NCBI GenBank assembly: GCA_000004695.1
Contig: CM000152.2
Span: forward strand, 992,001 to 1,056,000
Direction of reading: 5' to 3'
Source of the DNA: Dictyostelium discoideum
Lineage: Eukaryota
Length of the DNA stretch: 64,000 nucleotides
Part shown: in pieces, positions 5,978 through 46,630 of the stretch
Position numbering within the stretch: position 1 is the stretch's first letter
Layout of the letters: each line of letters begins with the position of its first letter
Made by a program: the position numbers and the translations under genes
Notes under the pieces: generated by a model
Told to the model about the DNA's origin: nothing
The model's input: only the letters and a program-made list of their open reading frames with translations
Databases searched by the model: none

Positions 5978-6583
5978 ATGAAATTAATATTTTTGGTTTT
6001 AGGTTTAATTTTAACCTTAGGTTTAGCATCTGCTCATCATAGAAATAGACATTCTCATGGTAATTATGATAATAATAATTATAATAATTATCATAATGGT
6101 GGTGAAATTGAAGTTCAAGAAGTTGCTGTTGAAAGTCAAATTGTTGTTGAAGATTATTCATATCATCCATATCAATGCGGTCCATACAATAGATGTAAAT
6201 TAGGTGAAGTTTGTCAAAGAATTGGTGACCATTGTCAATGTTTACCAATTCCATCATACAAGGATATTTGTTTATCTGTAAAGCAAATTGGTGTATGGCA
6301 AGATGGTCAGCGTGGAGGTAAAACCTATTCACAATGGGATATCACAATTGAAAATCATAGTAATAAAAATATTAGAGAAATTTTCATTGGGACTGATTAT
6401 ACTTTTAGATTACGTGATAATTCTTTAAATTCTCTTTGGAATATGGTTATGTTACCAAAAGGAATACTTGCTTTACCATCCGTTCAAAACTCAATTAATG
6501 CTCATGCATCTTATACTTTTGGTTTTATTATTGACGGTCCTCAATCACCAAATCTTCATATTTTAAGTGTATTATTCCAATAA
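5978..6583 (+). CDS. Secreted protein: signal peptide, Cys-rich N-module, and a ~110-aa C-terminal beta-sandwich-like domain (possible CBM49-like carbohydrate-binding domain). Paralog of 46088..46630
   Basis: N-terminal MKLIFLVLGLILTLGLASA signal peptide. Motif YHPYQCGPYNRCKLGEVCQRIGDHCQC, then WQDGQRGGKTYSQWDITIENHSNKNIREIFIGTD...LWNMVMLPKGILALP...SYTFGFII. About 60% identical to the ORF at 46088..46630. Confidence 0.7.
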   Translation: MKLIFLVLGLILTLGLASAHHRNRHSHGNYDNNNYNNYHNGGEIEVQEVAVESQIVVEDYSYHPYQCGPYNRCKLGEVCQRIGDHCQCLPIPSYKDICLSVKQIGVWQDGQRGGKTYSQWDITIENHSNKNIREIFIGTDYTFRLRDNSLNSLWNMVMLPKGILALPSVQNSINAHASYTFGFIIDGPQSPNLHILSVLFQ

Positions 6584-7217: not shown

Positions 7218-7415
7218 ATGAAATCAATTCTCTCAATTTTATTTGCATTATTATTAATTGTTGCTGTTTCAATGGGTAATAATTTAGAAAATGAAGAATT
7301 TTACAACATGGAAATTGCTGATGCTGTTTATCCACTATGTAAAAACGGAAAATGTCCAAAAGGTTCTATTTGTATTGACGTCAGAGATACAAAAATATGT
7401 TTCCCAAATCAATAA
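7218..7415 (+). CDS. Small secreted 4-Cys protein (65 aa), member of a tandem pair
   Basis: Signal peptide MKSILSILFALLLIVAVSMG, then C-KNGKC-x5-C-x9-C-FP. Shares the pattern C-x-KGKC...C...(R)D-x-KICFP with the gene at 8143. Confidence 0.55.
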   Translation: MKSILSILFALLLIVAVSMGNNLENEEFYNMEIADAVYPLCKNGKCPKGSICIDVRDTKICFPNQ

Positions 7416-7600
7416 TTTTTAAAAAAAAACTATATTTTTTAATAAAACTAGTTTATTTAAAAAAAAAAAAAAGTTAATAGTTTAAATTTTATTTTATTTT
7501 AATTTATATAAAATGAGAAAATATTTCTTTTAAAATACTCTAATATTTTTTTAATATACAATTAATTAATTATTGTTAGATAAAAAATATTTAATAATTA

Positions 7601-7643
<43 letters not shown>

Positions 7644-7924
7644 TATCACTTTGTTTTTATCATTCCAAAAAAAAAAATTTAATATGGAACCACACAATTG
7701 TAAATACACCACCCAAAAAGAACAGAAATAGTTATTATTTATTTCAATGTGTGAGTATTAAATTTTTGAATATTATTTGTTTTTATTTTTTTTTTTTTTT
7801 TTTTGGTGTGTGATTGTTGAAGTGGTGGTTGTTGTAAATACAAAAAATATTTGTAAAATAAATATTCAATTTATTCGCACTCATATTTCATATTGCGATA
7901 ACTTATTTTTTTTATTTAATAAAA

Positions 7925-7961
<37 letters not shown>

Positions 7962-8142
7962 AATTATAATTTTTTTTTTTTTTATTTTTTTTTTTTTTTT
8001 TATATATAATTTTTTTTTTTTTTTATAAATTATTGATATATATAATTAATACATTTATCATTTATAATTTTTTTTTTTGTTTATTTGTTTATTTTTTATT
8101 TTAACCACATTATATTATTATAATAATTATTTAAAAGAAAAA

Positions 8143-8757
8143 ATGAGAATTTTATATTCTTTGATTGCAATTTTATTAATAATTTCAGTTTCAATGGGAA
8201 ATGTTCAAGAAACTGAAGGAATTTATTCAAAATGTGTCAAGGGTAAATGTAAAACAAATGAAGTGTGTATTGGTCTAAGAGATGATAAGATTTGTTTCCC
8301 AAAGAGTTCAGTTGAAGCTCAACGTCATTTGGAAGCCAATAAAAAAGCTGAATCTAAACCAGCTTCTAAACCAGCAGGTAAACCAGTTTCAAGAGCTGCA
8401 AAACCATCTCAAAAAACAGCTGCCCAAAAACAAGCTGCCGCTAAACAAGCTGCTGCCAAAAAAGCTGCCGCCAAACATGATGCTGCCAAACACGATGCTG
8501 CCAAACACGATGCCGTTAAACAAGGTGCTGCTAAACAAGGTGCTGCTAAACAAAGTGGAAAAAATGCAGCCAAACCACATCAAGAAGTAAAACCAGTTCC
8601 AAGAGCTGCAAAGCCAGCTGTCCATAAACCAGCACAAAAAGTAACTAAACCAGAACCAAAACAAGCCAAACCAGTACCAAGACAAGCCAAACCTTTACCA
8701 AAACAAGCTGTAAAACCACAACAAAAAGTTAATCAAAAGGCTTCTCAAAAACACTAA
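8143..8757 (+). CDS. Small secreted 4-Cys domain protein with a long Lys/Ala/Pro/Gln-rich repetitive basic tail (205 aa)
   Basis: True ATG at 8143 (MRILYSLIAILLIISVSMG), in frame with the track ORF. Cys module CVKGKCKTNEVCIGLRDDKICFP. The tail consists of AAKQ/AAKHD/KPxxK repeats. Confidence 0.6.
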   Translation: MRILYSLIAILLIISVSMGNVQETEGIYSKCVKGKCKTNEVCIGLRDDKICFPKSSVEAQRHLEANKKAESKPASKPAGKPVSRAAKPSQKTAAQKQAAAKQAAAKKAAAKHDAAKHDAAKHDAVKQGAAKQGAAKQSGKNAAKPHQEVKPVPRAAKPAVHKPAQKVTKPEPKQAKPVPRQAKPLPKQAVKPQQKVNQKASQKH

Positions 8758-8911: not shown

Positions 8912-9707
8912 TTAATCATATAAATCGGAATCATTTTGATCACTTGAATAATCAATGATATCACCATCATTATCATAACCAATATCATAACCAGAACAAG
9001 TACCAACAGTGTAATCAGAATCACCACTAAATAAACCACCGCTAGTTGATAATGATAATTTTGCAGTTACAGCATTATTTAAATTTGTTATTGAGGATGA
9101 AGATGTTGATAAATCTAATTTACCATTATTTTGATTTTGATTTTGATTTTGATTTTGAATTTGGTTTTGATTTTGTTGTAATGGTACTAAGAATTTTGGT
9201 ATATTTGCAATTGGTAAATTTTGAATTATTGTTAAGATTTGATCAAACGAGGGTCTATTATTTGGATTTTGATCCCAACAAATTTGAATTAAATTTGACC
9301 ATCTATGATCAATAGTTTGAGGTAATGGAGGTCTTTCAGCATTTGCAATTTTAAAAGAGGCAGCTATTTGTTCATAATCATGAAATGGTACTCTTCTAGT
9401 GAACATTTCATATAGAATCATACCAAAACCAAATACATCAACTTTTTCACTATACTTTTGACCTTTGGTCACCTCTGGTGATCTAAATCTTGGATTACCA
9501 ATTGATGTCATAGTTTTATCACCAATATCATTCTTAAATCTTGATATACCAAAATCTGCAATCTTTGCAATACCATTTCTATCAATTAATATATTTTGTG
9601 ATGTTAAATCTCTATGAATAATTTGTGGTTTCAAACTATGTAAATAGTTCATACCATTTGCAATATTTAATGATAATGTATTAATTGATGGTAATGATTG
9701 AATTATA

Positions 9708-9740
<33 letters not shown>

Positions 9741-10312
9741 GCACCAGCACCACCAATTGGTATAGTATTTAAAATTGTATACAAACTACCATTATCACAA
9801 AATTCTAATACTAATAATAATTCTTTTTCTTCTATACAAGTTGCATATAATTTTACAAAACTTGAGAAATTTGATAATTTAACCATCAAGACTGCTTCCA
9901 ATATAAATTTATCTCTAATCCATTGATAGGATTTACCAGATTCCAAGATTTTTTCAATTTTTACTCTTTTAACAGCAACATTTTTATTTCTCCATTCCAC
10001 TAAATATACATCACCAAATGCTCCAGCACCAATCTTTCTAGCGGTTTTAAAATTAAATTCCTCTTTACCAACTATATAACCTTCATATTTTAATAACTCA
10101 ATTGCGATTGTAAAATGATTATTTAAAACTAATAAATCAATTGGTGTATTATTCTCTTTATCTGGTATTTGAATTGATTGTTGTTGTGTATTACCACCAT
10201 TTGAAATTCTTAATCCACCAACACTACTACTATTTGAATTTGTAAGATTATTAGAATTATTTTGTATTGTTGTTGCTGTCGTTGTTGTTATTGCTGTGGT
10301 TGTTGTTGTTGT

Positions 10313-10349
<37 letters not shown>

Positions 10350-11057
10350 GAAGGTAATAATGTGGTAGAATTCATTTTTGAATATAGTTCTAAAAAATAT
10401 CTAATTAAATCAATATTACCATTAACACAAGCATTATGAATTGGGTATCTACCATTCAAATTATCAATTGATAATCTTGCACCAGAATTTAATAAAATTT
10501 TAGCCAATGATAAATTACCACTTAATGAAGCTAAATTCAGTGGTGTATTATTACTTTGATCCAATGCATTAATTGTTGAATCATCTATTAAACATTTTAC
10601 AACATCTACATGACCATTTAAAGAATGATAATGAATTGGTAACATTCCTTTATAATCCATATCATGAATATTACAACCCAATTGTAATAATAGTAATGTC
10701 ATCTCTCTAGTAGTTGAATAAAATAATGCTGATCTATTGGTAATTGGTAATTTACAATTTACATTGGTAATATTATACACGTTTGGTAAAATTGATAATA
10801 AAAATCTAACTAAACTACCACCACCAATAACTTTTACAATTGCAAAATAAATTGGATAAACTTTTAATATATTCTCATTAAATGGTGGCACCATTGTTGT
10901 TGTTGTTGTTGTTGTTGTTGACGTTGAAAATTGTAAACATTTATTCAAATTTATTAATTCATTTTGTGTTGGAATTTGTTGATTGAATTGTATATTATAA
11001 CTATTATTTGCTAATAATCTATTACTATTACTAATATTACTAATATTATTATTATTG

Positions 11058-11100
<43 letters not shown>

Positions 11101-11325
11101 AATTTATATTTGATAGAATAAAATTTAATAAAAATAATAAAATTTGATCTTGTGAATAAATGATTGAAAAACAAATGATTCTATCTAAGGTTGATAATTT
11201 TTCACCTCTTAAAATTGTTATAAATAAATCATTATTATCTAAATATCTATGTAAATTAAATTTACATTGAATTAAAAAATTTAATCTTTCTGATATTACA
11301 CTAAAATTATTTTTAATTAATTTAA

Positions 11326-11392
<67 letters not shown>

Positions 11393-11638
11393 ATTATTAT
11401 TATTATTAATTATATTAATCCAATTTGGATTTAATTTCACTTTAATTGATAATAATTTAAATATTTTAATATAAAGAAAAAGATAATTTTTATTTATTGT
11501 TGAATAAAAGTAATCATCCTTTATAATGTTTATATGAAATTCTCTATTTATTAATGATAATGAATAAATGTCATTATCATTTATATAATTATTTAAATAA
11601 AGTATTGCTAAACTTTCTATAATTTTATTATTTGACAT
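8912..11638 (-). CDS. Ankyrin-repeat-containing TKL-family protein kinase (908 aa, single exon)
   Basis: Kinase subdomains IGAGAFGDVYLVEWRNKNVAVK (Gly loop and VAVK), HRDLTSQNILID (catalytic loop), IADFGISRF (DFG), and SPE...DVFGFGMILYE. N-terminal ankyrin repeats (LPIHYHSLNGHVDVVKCLI, TPLNLASLSGNLSLAKILLNSGA, YPIHNACVNGNIDLIRYFL). Poly-Asn/Thr tracts. Confidence 0.85.
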
Positions 11639-26778: not shown

Positions 26779-26782
<4 letters not shown>

Positions 26783-27363
26783 TAATAATAGGTTGTTGAT
26801 GTTTTAGCTTGTAATATATCAGTAGCTTTATATGTAACGCCATCATTAACAGTTGTTGAACTTCTACCAGAACCTGTACCAGTATCATTGTCGCCTGTAC
26901 TATAACATCCTGTTTCTTGAAGGTTTTTTTTTAACTCTGATGATTTATAGGTTACTCCATCATTTACTGTTGTATCGCCATCATTATATCCTGTTCCTGA
27001 TGATGTACCACAACCTGATGATGTACCACTTGAACTACTACCACTACCACCACTGCCACCACTACCACCACTGCCACCACTGCCACCACTGCCACCACTA
27101 CCGTTAACACTTGATGAGTGTGCTAATTTATCTGGCATTCCAGCATCTTTTGAATATGTATATGATTCAACTTCAACATTTATTGCCTTTTTTAATAAAA
27201 TAATTTCAATTTTAATATTTGTTATTTTTTTTTTTTTTTTTTCCCAAGATTTTTTCAATGAAAAAAAAAAACAAAAAATAGAATTATATATAAAAACTAA
27301 TTTATAACTTACCCATGATAATGAAATTAATAAACAAAAGATTAAAACTAATTTTAATAACAT
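26779..27363 (-). CDS. Small secreted Gly/Ser-rich protein with duplicated TTVNDGVTYK motif. Probably 2 exons, 27313..27363 and 26779..27186
   Basis: ATG at 27363, MLLKLVLIFCLLISLSW, then GTAAGT donor at 27312. Candidate acceptor ttattaaaaaag|GCA at 27187/27186. The 126-nt intron is in-frame and stop-free, so the ORF tool read through it. The product has a (GSG)n linker and two copies of TTVNDGVTYK(S/A). Confidence 0.45.
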
Positions 27364-42769: not shown

Positions 42770-43876
42770 ATGAATAAAAGCTCATCAGCATCAACAGTTC
42801 CACCTCATTCAACCCCTCATACAGCACATTCAACATCCTCTTCATCTCTACCTCCATTATCATCTACACATCACACAAATACATCATCTACGTCGAATAA
42901 TAATAATAATAGTAATAATAACCACAACCACAACCATCATCACACTACAGCAGCTACAACAACAACATCAACAACAGGTACAGGTACTACAGCAGCAACA
43001 ACATCAACATCAACATCATCAACAATACCAATAAATACAGCAGGAATTCATACGAGTAATAGTAATTTAGCGACAGCAACAAATACACCATCATCATCAC
43101 CACAAGTTTCAACATCAGTAGAAAGAAGATTTTGGATGAACGACAGAGGCTCAAGAAGATCATCAACCTCATTAACACAACAACCATTAACTATGAATAG
43201 ATCATCAAATAAACTACATGCTGCCGTCTCAGCTAGAGATTTAACAAGACTAAAACAAAGATTATCACAACCACGTAAAGCAAAGATCGAATTGGCAGAA
43301 TATGATTCAATGGATCAAACTCCTCTTTGTGCTGCTTTAAGAAATGGTTCACATGATATAGTTAGAGAAATTTTATTTTTCTATCAATCAAATAAGTAAG
43401 TAAAAAAAAAAAAAAAATAACAAAAACAAAAAAAAAAAAAAATTAAATTAAATTAAATAATAATTGTATATACATATTTTTAAATTCTGTTTATTTATAT
43501 TAACTTTTTTTTTTATTTTTTTAAAAAATAAAATAATAAATTTAGAATGGATATTAATGATCAAGATAAAAGTGGTTATACACCATTACATGTTGCAGCA
43601 TCTCATTGTGATGATCAAATTCTAATGTTATTATTAAATTATGAAGGCATCAATGTAAATATAACAAATGAAGATAAAAATTCTGCACTTCATTACTTTT
43701 GTCAAAAGTTTAGATCACCAAATTGTCAAGAACCATTTTCAATATTTTTAAAGAAAGGTGTAAATGTAAATGCACAAAACAAAAATGGTGAAACCCCATT
43801 ACATAAATCAATTTTTAATAATACTGTTCGTTTACTTATGGTAAACATGTTATTAGATGTATGTATTATTACACAA

Positions 43877-43907
<31 letters not shown>

Positions 43908-44038
43908 CTATATATTACAATAATTTATAATCCTCATAATCATTTAAAAAAAGATAATAATATATATAAAAAAAGCATACATATACTAACATATATTCAA
44001 TTTTTTTTTATTTTTAATTTTTCTTTAAAATTGTGTGG

Positions 44039-44083
<45 letters not shown>

Positions 44084-45737
44084 TGTGAAAAAAAAAAAAA
44101 ACCCAAAAAATAATAATAATAATAATTAGGCAGGAGCAGAAGTAAATGTATTAAATTCAAGAGGTGAAAGTCCACTTCATTTTGCAGTTCGTCTTGGTAG
44201 AGAAGATTTAGTATCAGTTTTAGTTAAAGCAGGAGCAGATATTACAATTAAAGGAAATGAAAAGAAAACATGTTATGAGTTATCTTTAACGATTGGGAAT
44301 CAAAGAGTTATAAATTTTTTAAAGAATGTTCAAGATATTTTCAATTGGTTGAAATCAATAGATTTGGAACAATATTGGTTAAATTTTGTAAAGGAAGAGA
44401 TATTTATGGACTTACTATTGGATATTGATGAAAGAACATTGGATTCATTAGGTATCACCTATAGTGGTCATCGTTTAAAAATAATTAGAAATTGTAGAAT
44501 ATTAAGAGATCAACAACTATTGAGTACTGCCAATAGTAATGTTACCACAGGTAGTGGTAGTAGTGGTTCAACAACAACAACCACCACCACTACCACCACC
44601 ACCTCTGGTTGTGGTGGATTAAATGTACCAGAGAATAAAAAGGTAACACAATTATCAATCGAATCATTAAAATCAAATCCACCAAATAGTATGGATTCAA
44701 CTGGTAGTATTAGTTCAGATGATTTGAAAGAGTCATTGACAAATCTTGAACATTGGGTTATTGATCACTCAGAGTTGGAGTATACATTAAAATTGGGTAG
44801 TGGTAGTTCAGGTAAGGTTTATAAAGGTTTATATAAGGGTAAGGAAGTGGCAGTCAAAGTATTGAAATCAATCACCACTCAATCACAATTGGAGGAATTT
44901 AAAAAGGAATTTCAAATTATGGGTTCAATTCGTTCTCAATTTATGGTAACATTTTATGGTGCATGCATTGAACCAAAACTTTGTATGGTCATGGAGTATT
45001 GTAGTCGTGACTCATTGTATCATGTAATGAACACCAAAAAGTATGACATTGGTTGGGACAGATTCTTTCAATTCACCATGCAAATGACATTGGGTGTACA
45101 GTGTCTTCACAATTGGACACCTCAAATTGTACACAGAGACTTTAAGAGTTTAAATCTTTTGGTCAATGAAGATTGGGAATGCAAAGTTTCAGATTTTGGT
45201 CTTAGTCGTTTTAATACCGCCGATAATTTAGAAACACTCAGTAAGATTCGTGGTACCTTTGCCTATTGTTCACCTGAAGTCGCCGTAGGTAATGGTAGTC
45301 TCTACACTACCAAATCTGATATCTACAGTATTGGTATCGTCTTTTGGGAATTAGTAACTCGTGTTATCAATGGTGAATACTCTCGTCCCTACAGTGAATA
45401 TTCTCACATCAAAATGGACTTTCAAATCATGTTAAACTCAAAGGAAGGTTTAAGACCAACCTTACCTCAAAATACTCCACCTGGTCTTGAAGCACTCTAC
45501 AAACAATGTGTAAACCAAGAACAAACCTTAAGACCAAGTTGCGAAGAAATCATTGAAACTTTAAATCGATTGAGACATGAATATATGTCTTCAAAAACTA
45601 CTTGGGATTCTTTAATTAGAAAACTACCATCTTTATCACCACCACCTCAACCAACTACTACAACAACAACTACTACTTCTTCTTCCACTTCAACAAATAA
45701 TATAAATAATAACATAAATAATAACAATAATACTTAA
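42770..45737 (+). CDS. Ankyrin-repeat + SAM-domain + TKL-family protein kinase (about 848 aa). Exons 42770..43395, 43546..43858 and 44130..45737
   Basis: Donor AA|GTAAGT at 43396. Acceptor tttag|A at 43545/43546. Donor GAT|GTATGT at 43859, chosen over GTAAAC at 43841 because it completes an ankyrin repeat (TPLHKSIFNNTVRLLMVNMLLDAGAEVNVLNSRGESPLH). Acceptor aattag|GCA at 44129/44130. SAM-like segment LEQYWLNFVKEEIFMDLLLDIDERTLDSLGITYSGHRLKII. Kinase motifs LGSGSSGKVYKG...VAVKVLK, HRDFKSLNLLVN, VSDFGLSRF, CSPEV. Confidence 0.8.
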
Positions 45738-46087: not shown

Positions 46088-46630
46088 TTAATAAACTATT
46101 TTAAGGATTGGGAGGTTTGGAACAAATGCACCTTCAATAATGAAACCAAATGTATAAGTTGAATGAGCATTAATTGATTGTTGAATTGGTGGTAATGCTA
46201 AAATTCCATTTGGAATACGGACCATGTTCCAAAGAGATGTATCAGAGTTATCACGTAATCTGAATGAGCTGTCAGTACCAATGTTAATTTGTTTGATATT
46301 GTTATTTCCATTATTAACAATTGTAACATCATATTGAGAATAAGTTCTACCACCACGTGATCCATCTTGCCATACACCAATTTGTTTGATAATTAAGTAA
46401 ACTTGATTGGCATTATTTAATTGAACAATTGGTTGACATTGACAAATATCTCCTACCATGTGGCATGTTTCTCCTGATTTACAATTATCATTATATCCAC
46501 ATCTATATGGGTGGTGTGGGTAACGATACAATAATGATTCTGAAATTTCAGATTCTTGAATATTGGCTGATGTCAATGAAATTGATAATAAAATACCTAA
46601 AATTAAAGTTAAAAAAAATATAGTTTTCAT
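46088..46630 (-). CDS. Secreted Cys-rich protein, paralog of 5978..6583 (possible CBM49-like C-terminal domain), 180 aa
   Basis: Signal peptide MKTIFFLTLILGILLSISLTSA. HPYRCGYNDNCKSGETCHMVGDICQC, then IKQIGVWQDGSRGGRTYSQYDVTIVNNGNNNIKQINIGTD...LWNMVRIPNGILALP...TYTFGFII. Confidence 0.7.
   Translation of the reverse strand: MKTIFFLTLILGILLSISLTSANIQESEISESLLYRYPHHPYRCGYNDNCKSGETCHMVGDICQCQPIVQLNNANQVYLIIKQIGVWQDGSRGGRTYSQYDVTIVNNGNNNIKQINIGTDSSFRLRDNSDTSLWNMVRIPNGILALPPIQQSINAHSTYTFGFIIEGAFVPNLPILKIVY

Follow-up and report, generated by a model that had tools for sequence, protein, structure and literature searches.

What do two short genes lying head to tail in the genome of Dictyostelium discoideum encode, and what would their products do? 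The genes lie in a stretch of 64,000 nucleotides (NCBI GenBank assembly GCA_000004695.1, contig CM000152.2, positions 992,001 to 1,056,000 of the forward strand), which we call the window and along which all positions below are counted. An initial annotation of the window had described the products as small secreted proteins with four cysteines, the second of which carries a basic repeat tail. We confirm what it observed and find support for part of its interpretation. The reading we favour, to which we give a probability of roughly 45%, is that the two open reading frames (ORFs) are a tandem pair of recent origin whose products are secreted to the extracellular matrix and share a two-disulfide, EGF-like head, and that the product of the second is tethered to polyanions by its charge.

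Are the two ORFs real genes? Both were found in tandem, as the initial annotation had described, and its estimate of about 700 bp between them agrees with a measured spacing of 727 bp:

7218-7415, plus strand: ORF1, DDB_G0278695 (Q54XY8 / XP_642414.1), a single exon encoding a 65-residue precursor, with an exact match in the protein collection
8143-8757, plus strand: ORF2, encoding a 204-residue precursor counted from the first ATG

The window, which we take to lie on chromosome 3, has a G+C content of 23.8%, and DDB_G0278519, DDB_G0278695, DDB_G0277911 and DDB_G0278537 are the exact D. discoideum AX4 matches among its proteins. The transcript length on record for ORF1 is 198 nt (PMC8808424). 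The open frame of ORF2 reaches upstream to a TTG at 8077 in the ORF listing, and a gene of 204 amino acids with an identical product is called in assembly GCA_054883475.1. The ORF1 and ORF2 proteins share 47% identity over 60 residues, including a signal-like N-terminus, and this likeness is not due to chance, since pairwise BLASTP gave E = 3e-16. ORF1 and ORF2 are genuine head-to-tail paralogous genes of an amoebozoan.

We compared six lineages, namely D. discoideum, two D. cf. discoideum, D. citrinum, D. dimigraforme and D. firmibasis, with the syntenic loci of the five further lineages retrieved via the neighbouring genes. ORF1 and ORF2 were intact in all six, with order and orientation kept, and the pair always sits between mfeB and/or a CBM49 gene on one side and a convergent ankyrin-repeat kinase gene on the other. 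Orthologues are 63-66 (ORF1) and 189-222 (ORF2) amino acids long, and every length change in the ORF2 tail stays in frame. The ratio of nonsynonymous to synonymous substitution rates (dN/dS, NG86 method) was 0.15-0.43 for the ORF2 tail and 0.2-0.5 for ORF1 against the three more distant lineages; for the head it was noisy (0.2-2.5), on very few sites. The DNA between the genes is AT-rich and unalignable apart from conserved blocks, among them two boxes in the ORF2 promoter:

7690-7718, plus strand: CA-rich box CCACACAATTGTAAATACACCACCCAAAA, a phylogenetic footprint across the six lineages and a putative regulatory element
7805-7841, plus strand: GT-rich box GGTGTGTGATTGTTGAAGTGGTGGTTGTTGTAAATAC, the best-conserved intergenic block, found in all six lineages including D. 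firmibasis

Both boxes terminate in TTGTAAATAC, and we take them to be similar to the G-box/CA-rich elements of post-aggregative Dictyostelium promoters. A further conserved block lies immediately 5' of the ORF2 ATG in 6/6 lineages. In one D. cf. discoideum locus (L004), an (ATA)n microsatellite expansion of ~200 bp within the region between the genes (~7400-8240) brings the intergenic distance to 848 bp.

In such AT-rich DNA, one or both ORFs might be non-functional chance frames; ORF1 has just 65 codons and is uncalled in some assemblies, and large protein collections do not contain ORF2. We find this hardly conceivable and reject it, because both frames are intact in six lineages with their insertions and deletions in frame, dN/dS is below 1 at larger distances, and the intergenic promoter footprints are conserved. 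ORF1 also reaches 270-790 transcripts per million (TPM) or normalised units in published RNA-seq. Conservation and expression data together refute a spurious origin.

When and where are the genes expressed? Transcription had been proposed as a check on the ORFs by the initial annotation, and ORF1 is indeed transcribed in published RNA-seq. Its level was 0, 0, 4.8, 9.6, 13, 67 and 789 at 0, 4, 8, 12, 16, 20 and 24 h of development, respectively (Kin et al. 2018, PMC6198379, supplement 5, Cup sheet). By cell type, ORF1 reached 625 in Cup, compared with 44 in Stalk, 14.6 in Spore, 13.9 in Prespore, 0.76 in Prestalk and 0.26 in Vegetative cells (PMC6198379). It belongs to k-means cluster 6, described as a set expressed almost exclusively at 24 h, which also holds DDB_G0278519 (24 h 927, Cup 401) and beiB (DDB_G0278537; 24 h 3640, Cup 15,300), a late cup-cell marker by its promoter (PMC6198379). 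Furthermore, ORF1 was reduced in cdl1a-null fruiting bodies, with a log2 fold change of -2.52 (adjusted P 4e-5) from 270-405 TPM in the wild type (Kin et al. 2022, PMC8808424); its expression is partly Cdl1a-dependent. For beiB the log2 fold change was -6.64, and DDB_G0278519 was the most significant differentially expressed gene of that comparison (-8.96, adjusted P 1e-50) (PMC8808424). In the published tables, ORF1 therefore shows the late (22-24 h), cup-specific and Cdl1a-dependent expression of the beiB type. The motif AAAAGTGTGAAA upstream of ORF1 was not found in the beiB or DDB_G0278519 promoters and showed no enrichment in the window.

ORF2 is probably DDB_G0278697. This assignment comes from the order of gene ids, since ORF1 is DDB_G0278695, the 557-residue gene beyond the kinase gene is DDB_G0278699 (its transcript length of 1674 nt fits), and the kinase gene next to ORF2 is presumably DDB_G0278521. 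DDB_G0278697 stands in the column that we counted as 'UP_Hr12_gradual', assuming the filter_UP sheet (Rosengarten et al. 2015, PMC4403905), and beiB and DDB_G0278519 stand in 'UP_Hr22_gradual' (PMC4403905). The lists of cup-, stalk- and spore-specific genes do not include this id. Should the assignment hold, ORF2 would be a post-aggregative gene whose onset comes before that of ORF1.

Other short genes share the late cup-cell pattern. The hssA/2C/7E products are Gly/Ser-rich and are not known to carry the Cys module. In one study they are given as the most abundant late cup-cell transcripts, with hssA genes of ~213 bp in two exons; by that account they are, like ORF1, short lineage-restricted genes whose expression is very late and specific to cup cells (PMC6198379).

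What do the two proteins look like? Up to the end of the head, they divide into the following parts:

7218-7277, plus strand: predicted ORF1 signal peptide MKSILSILFALLLIVAVSMG, residues 1-20; AlphaFold2 helix 3-20, core mean Kyte-Doolittle hydropathy 3.05, S/G at -3/-1
7278-7328, plus strand: acidic segment NNLENEEFYNMEIADAV, N-terminal in the mature ORF1 peptide; low predicted local distance difference test (pLDDT) score, residues 25-35
7329-7406, plus strand: ORF1 four-Cys head YPLCKNGKCPKGSICIDVRDTKICFP, with invariant Y, C, G-K-C, C-I, R and C-F-P; predicted beta-hairpin
8143-8199, plus strand: predicted ORF2 signal peptide MRILYSLIAILLIISVSMG, residues 1-19; AlphaFold2 helix 2-19, mean Kyte-Doolittle hydropathy 2.67, S/G at -3/-1
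8200-8301, plus strand: ORF2 four-Cys head NVQETEGIYSKCVKGKCKTNEVCIGLRDDKICFP, which aligns with the ORF1 head; predicted strands 29-32, 40-43 and 49-53

The N-termini are signal-peptide-like, in agreement with the initial annotation, with a mean Kyte-Doolittle hydropathy of 2.7-3.0 in the hydrophobic core and Ser/Gly at -3/-1. They end in VSMG|N across 12 sequences (both proteins in six lineages), and both precursors are probably cleaved at this site and secreted. Mature ORF1 would be acidic (pI 4.7, net charge -2), with a charge of +3 on the head alone. In the AlphaFold2 model of ORF1, the N-terminus is helical, the acidic stretch is disordered, and residues 50-55/58-63 form a beta-hairpin with a pLDDT of ~85; the ORF2 structure, in which a coil separates the two helices that follow the head, was predicted from a single sequence and has lower confidence.

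The Cys modules proper are CKNGKCPKGSICIDVRDTKICFP at 7338-7406 in ORF1 and CVKGKCKTNEVCIGLRDDKICFP at 8233-8301 in ORF2. A four-Cys module had been proposed for both genes, and it is present in both; the spacing had to be corrected to C-x2-G-K-C at the start (C-K-N-G-K-C in ORF1) and to a second loop of 5 residues in both. We found the motif C-x2-G-K-C-x5-C-x8-C-F-P twice in the six frames of the 64-kb window, once per ORF. The Cys spacing is kept in the 12 sequences from six lineages, with the invariant motif Y-P-x-C-x2-G-K-C-x5-C-I-x2-R-x4-C-F-P. In ORF1 numbering, the invariant residues are Tyr38, Cys41, Gly44-Lys45-Cys46, Cys52-Ile53, Arg56 and Cys61-Phe62-Pro63. Of the two findings that the initial annotation had named as refuting it, neither a Cys spacing without conservation in other genes or species nor, in view of ORF1, untranscribed ORFs was borne out.

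Does this head belong to a known family? No Pfam family reached threshold for ORF1 or ORF2, but the initial view that fold and family could not be assigned needs some correction. Below threshold, the head matches the first two-thirds of EGF-type models, and there are weak fold matches to hairpins of EGF, Dkk and small toxins; the best Foldseek matches, of which none is significant, were to Dkk1, to EGF repeats and to small toxins. The D. citrinum ORF1 head matched positions 1-22 of 32 in the EGF model PF00008 with 17.7 bits against a gathering cut-off of 21.5 (E = 0.004), the best EGF score obtained, and the L004 ORF1 head matched positions 2-23 of 37 in EGF_MSP1_1 with 17.0 bits against 27 (E = 0.006); 10 of the 12 heads had no EGF match when scanned singly. 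EGF domains have six cysteines in three disulfides (C1-C3, C2-C4, C5-C6), whereas all 12 heads have exactly four, and their sequence ends or changes character two residues past the fourth. By resemblance, the head looks like a truncated EGF-like hairpin (C1-C4) rather than a member of the EGF family. As for the knot-like fold suggested at first, four cysteines allow two disulfides at most, and an inhibitor cystine knot (knottin), which needs at least six cysteines and three disulfides, was rejected.

Among the closest known systems are the EGF-like and follistatin-N-type modules, such as CyrA EGFL and the spore-coat FOLN/EGF-like modules, which likewise occur in secreted developmental proteins and form a small disulfide-bonded beta-hairpin; they are typical of lineage-variable matrix proteins of Dictyostelia (PMC4931340; PMC3899956). 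The head spacing C-x4-C-x5-C-x8-C corresponds to EGF Cys 1-4. However, the head has four cysteines and no C5-C6 sub-domain, stands as a single copy right after the signal peptide instead of in tandem arrays, and carries an invariant G-K-C ... R ... C-F-P signature that the EGF consensus lacks.

An EGF-like head might also be an extracellular signal, diffusible in ORF1 and matrix-tethered in ORF2. The precedent is CyrA, a Dictyostelium matrix protein in which an 18-residue peptide from an EGF-like repeat (EGFL1) stimulates cell motility (PMC3899956). In addition to the sub-threshold EGF likeness, ORF1 is short and its expression is sharply confined to one stage and cell type, and a free head beside a tethered one would be a common arrangement for ligands. 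However, ORF1 peaks at 24 h, after morphogenesis ends, and the head is quick to evolve and is without the C5-C6 sub-domain of true EGF ligands. To our knowledge there is also no known receptor, and we consider a signalling role quite unlikely.

What does the long tail add to ORF2? It falls into three regions:

8302-8415, plus strand: hinge, with a conserved short helix VEAQRHLEANKKAE (predicted 57-70) and an SKPA/AKPA linker to a conserved GKPVSR(A/S)(A/S)KPSQK
8416-8553, plus strand: Ala/Lys pentapeptide repeats (AAAKQ / DAAKH / GAAKQ, ~9 units), predicted with low confidence as a single long helix, 93-132
8554-8754, plus strand: Lys/Pro/Gln-rich C-terminal region (KPVPRQA / KPxPKQA heptads), predicted extended or coil, 133-204; charge +15, pI 11.1

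A strongly basic, low-complexity repeat tail of ~150 residues on the second protein, as the initial annotation had described, is what we found. The tail comprises 151 amino acids (Ala 24.5%, Lys 21.9%, Gln 11.3%, Pro 10.6%) with a net charge of +29 and a pI of 10.7, and mature ORF2 would carry +30 on 185 residues. Its coding DNA holds tandem repeats of 12 nt in the hinge (8353-8390), 15 nt (8428-8553, 8.4 copies, 85% matches) and 21 nt (8626-8708, 4 copies). These repeats turn over: there are 3 DAAKH units in the window, 5 in L003 and 0 in L002, L004 and L007, and the number of AAAKQ units runs from 2 to 10 across lineages. Tail length varies from 136 to 169 amino acids over the six lineages, with a net charge of +29 to +32 throughout. 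The conserved property of the tail appears to be its charge, not its sequence. Since the charge stays within these bounds while the repeats turn over, binding of the ORF2 tail to polyanions is plausible.

The tail had also been called histone-H1-like. This holds for its composition only, as ORF2 has a basic Lys/Ala/Pro tail of the H1 type: like the C-terminal tails of H1 and like HC2, it is a repetitive polycation of ~150 residues, rich in Lys, Ala and Pro and extended or helical. A Pfam scan of the whole protein found no H1 winged-helix globular domain (PF00538) in ORF2, and the sole Pfam match of the tail was Chlamydia HC2 (PF07382), which scored 10-14 bits where the cut-off is 40 (E = 0.05-0.9). 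Moreover, H1 has no secretory signal, whereas a conserved hydrophobic signal-like N-terminus precedes the ORF2 head; ORF2 further differs in its disulfide head and its high Gln content. With no globular domain and a signal peptide present, homology to histone H1 was rejected, and the likeness is compositional.

A resemblance of composition could still matter outside the nucleus. Slug sentinel cells release extracellular DNA traps. ORF2 might be an independently evolved 'extracellular histone', a secreted nucleic-acid-binding analogue of linker histones whose tail coats extracellular DNA, for example in those traps, or other polyanions in the slug or sorus, with the shared head docking to a matrix or cell-surface partner. 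If true, ORF2 might arm sentinel-cell traps that lack nuclear histones, and ORF1 would supply the head in free form. The H1-like composition and charge of the tail and its match to the H1-like HC2 point this way, and the putative ORF2 id is up by 12 h, which would coincide with multicellular stages. However, the HC2 match is composition-driven and far below threshold, ORF2 has no H1 globular domain, and the link to DNA is hypothetical, a polycation being able to bind any polyanion. We regard the idea as highly improbable.

Alternatively, the tail could be a substrate for cross-linking, similar to the SPRR and involucrin proteins of the cornified envelope or to the KA/KP cross-linking domains of elastin, and be fixed in the matrix covalently instead of by charge. 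The Lys (22%) and Gln (11%) contents would suit this, and motifs such as AAAKQAAAK and KPVPKQAKP look similar to the repeats of SPRR and of elastin KA/KP. But the net charge is conserved rather than the K/Q spacing, the tail matches no protein family, and a Dictyostelium transglutaminase or lysyl oxidase, hypothetical here, would be needed. Such cross-linking seems improbable to us.

Could the pair serve in defence? Fast evolution on a fixed Cys scaffold is the usual pattern of host-defence peptides, and the heads evolve in this way, with some pairwise dN/dS values above 1. The proteins would then be secreted to the slug sheath or sorus, where they would bind bacteria and fungi through their anionic envelopes and damage or agglutinate them, shielding the spores. 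A strongly cationic ORF2 with conserved charge, the lineage restriction of the family, the production of ORF1 by cup cells, which surround the mass of spores, and the small toxin-type hairpins among the weak fold matches are all consistent with this role. However, mature ORF1 is net acidic (-2, pI 4.7) and essentially silent in feeding amoebae (0.26 TPM), and ORF2 is far larger than typical antimicrobial peptides, with an Ala/Lys/Gln/Pro tail of neither hydrophobic nor amphipathic character. Pfam and PDB searches matched no known antimicrobial family; in the PDB sequence search, the head profile returned nothing at E <= 10 and the tail returned one irrelevant match. A defence role is thus possible, though we think it unlikely.

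Are the heads related to those of the neighbouring cup-cell genes? Two genes of the window encode proteins with a CBM49 domain:

5978-6583, plus strand: DDB_G0278519, the 5' neighbour of the pair, with a signal peptide, Cys module CGPYNRCKLGEVCQRIGDHCQCLP and a CBM49 domain (E = 6e-11)
46088-46630, minus strand: beiB (DDB_G0278537, formerly cupB), an exact match, with Cys module PYRCGYNDNCKSGETCHMVGDICQCQP and a CBM49 domain (E = 7e-12)

beiB is a CBM49 paralogue of DDB_G0278519 and shares its architecture, including the N-terminal Cys module. Both share with ORF1 and ORF2 the chromosomal neighbourhood and a signal peptide followed directly by one small Cys module, and with ORF1 the 24-h, cup-specific and Cdl1a-dependent expression. 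Unlike the ORF1/ORF2 head, their modules have 5-6 cysteines (C-x-C-x-P) and lack the G-K-C and C-F-P signatures, and the Pfam scan found no CBM49 domain in ORF1 or ORF2. With hhalign, the C2-C3-C4-x-P part of the ORF1/ORF2 head aligned with the module of the CBM49 proteins (P = 0.002-0.004, probability 8-14%), and 3 of 300 column-shuffled controls reached the observed score. A relation between the two kinds of head is therefore suggestive, not proven.

In D. discoideum, D. cf. discoideum and D. citrinum, DDB_G0278519 occupies the slot that separates mfeB from ORF1 (L006 10962-11596; L007 11560-12126). In D. firmibasis and D. dimigraforme the syntenic slot lacks DDB_G0278519 and holds ORF1 and ORF2, and the pair would for this reason be older at this site than DDB_G0278519. 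The pattern points to a recent insertion or duplication in the slot, perhaps from beiB, or to a loss. The beiB orthologues of D. firmibasis, D. dimigraforme and D. citrinum share the same 90%-identity cluster. A Polysphondylium violaceum homologue of the CBM49 neighbour lies at a non-syntenic locus, which has no ORF1/ORF2-like gene.

How far does the family extend? A search of 5.8 billion proteins with full-length ORF2 gave zero matches, not even ORF2 itself. A profile of four heads in a word-indexed search of the same 5.8 billion proteins returned DDB_G0278695 alone, and an exhaustive HMMER search, run on 1.84 billion representatives with a profile built from both heads of the window, had the same outcome. 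These collections contain neither ORF2-type low-complexity proteins nor the annotated 66-residue protein of D. firmibasis, although the genes are called in NCBI assemblies, and for this reason the empty searches are weak evidence of absence, for example from D. purpureum. Negatives for short or low-complexity proteins in these collections call for caution in general. Two metagenome scans found no relative. The sole match to the head pattern there, at 405-463 on the minus strand of an AT-rich metagenome contig (L008, 22% G+C), has in-frame stops and lies antisense to an ORF of 745 residues, and was rejected as a chance match. Taken as a whole, the family appears confined to the clade that spans D. 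discoideum and D. firmibasis.

Full-text literature searches did not find the gene ids in main texts; they are present in supplementary tables only. ORF1 is already in published cup-cell gene lists, where it stands without comment, and the searchable literature describes neither the family and its motif nor the tail of conserved charge, nor the link to beiB-type neighbours.

How, then, would the pair work as matrix proteins? Each precursor would lose its signal peptide of ~20 residues, and the head of 26 residues would fold as a beta-hairpin with two disulfides, a truncated EGF-like module (Cys 1-4). ORF1 would be this head with a short acidic stretch, released by cup cells at the very end of fruiting-body formation. 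ORF2 would carry the head on a stalk of ~150 residues with a net charge of ~+30, in which a short helix and a KP linker lead to an Ala/Lys helix of ~40 residues and an extended Lys/Pro/Gln tail, and would be tethered electrostatically by its tail to a polyanionic matrix, such as acidic glycans on glycoproteins of the sheath, spore coat or cell surface. The head may be the module for specific interaction, and it may be common to the CBM49 neighbours or descend from theirs; the locus would then offer one type of head on different matrix anchors, namely none, a polycation or CBM49. This is in line with the finding that lineage-restricted developmental genes of Dictyostelia mostly encode secreted or exposed matrix and adhesion proteins (PMC4931340).

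Several points weigh against a secreted matrix pair of this kind. Secretion, disulfides, matrix location and binding partner are all predicted, and the polyanionic partner is hypothetical, cellulose, the chief matrix polymer, being uncharged. Within each replicate block, mass spectrometry detected the DDB_G0278519 and beiB proteins only in the intensity column listed last, which we assume to be the final developmental stage, and ORF1 was not detected in this life-cycle proteome (PMC12821622). If DDB_G0278697 is ORF2, its onset would precede that of ORF1 by ~10 h, and the paralogues would not act together in time. The relation of the head to the CBM49-protein heads is statistically weak, at an hhalign probability of 8-14%, and head dN/dS values above 1 in some close pairs suit a part in an arms race or in recognition no less than a structural role.

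Further features lie around the pair. The gene convergent with ORF2 is the following:

8912-11638, minus strand: ankyrin-repeat protein kinase gene, with 154 bp between its stop codon and that of ORF2

The poly-Asn/Thr tracts of this gene differ in length among lineages, giving products of 892-1079 amino acids. A second ankyrin-repeat protein kinase gene lies at 42770-45737 on the plus strand, and the two kinase genes flank the region. In addition, an ORF of 194 residues at 26779-27363 on the minus strand is hydrophobic at its N-terminus and contains a (GSG)n run as well as TTVNDGVTYK twice; it had no exact match in the protein collection and may encode another small secreted low-complexity protein.

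What does the locus mean for Dictyostelium? The tail keeps its charge while its repeats turn over, which makes it a clear example of selection that acts on a bulk physical property and not on sequence. As a cell type, cup cells are confined to group 4 Dictyostelia, within which they arose (PMC6198379, PMC8808424). ORF1 is one of a small set of genes almost exclusive to late cup cells, and in a neighbourhood of 40 kb it stands beside DDB_G0278519 and beiB, two of the strongest Cdl1a-dependent cup genes. Because ORF1 is cup-specific, its surroundings hold these two cup genes and the family appears clade-restricted, the locus offers a compact example of young, fast-evolving secreted genes recruited to a new cell type. 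It also suggests a modular scheme in which one small disulfide head is combined with various matrix anchors. With these findings, the lineage-specific extracellular proteins, a known class, gain a small family that was undescribed before, and current views stay in place.

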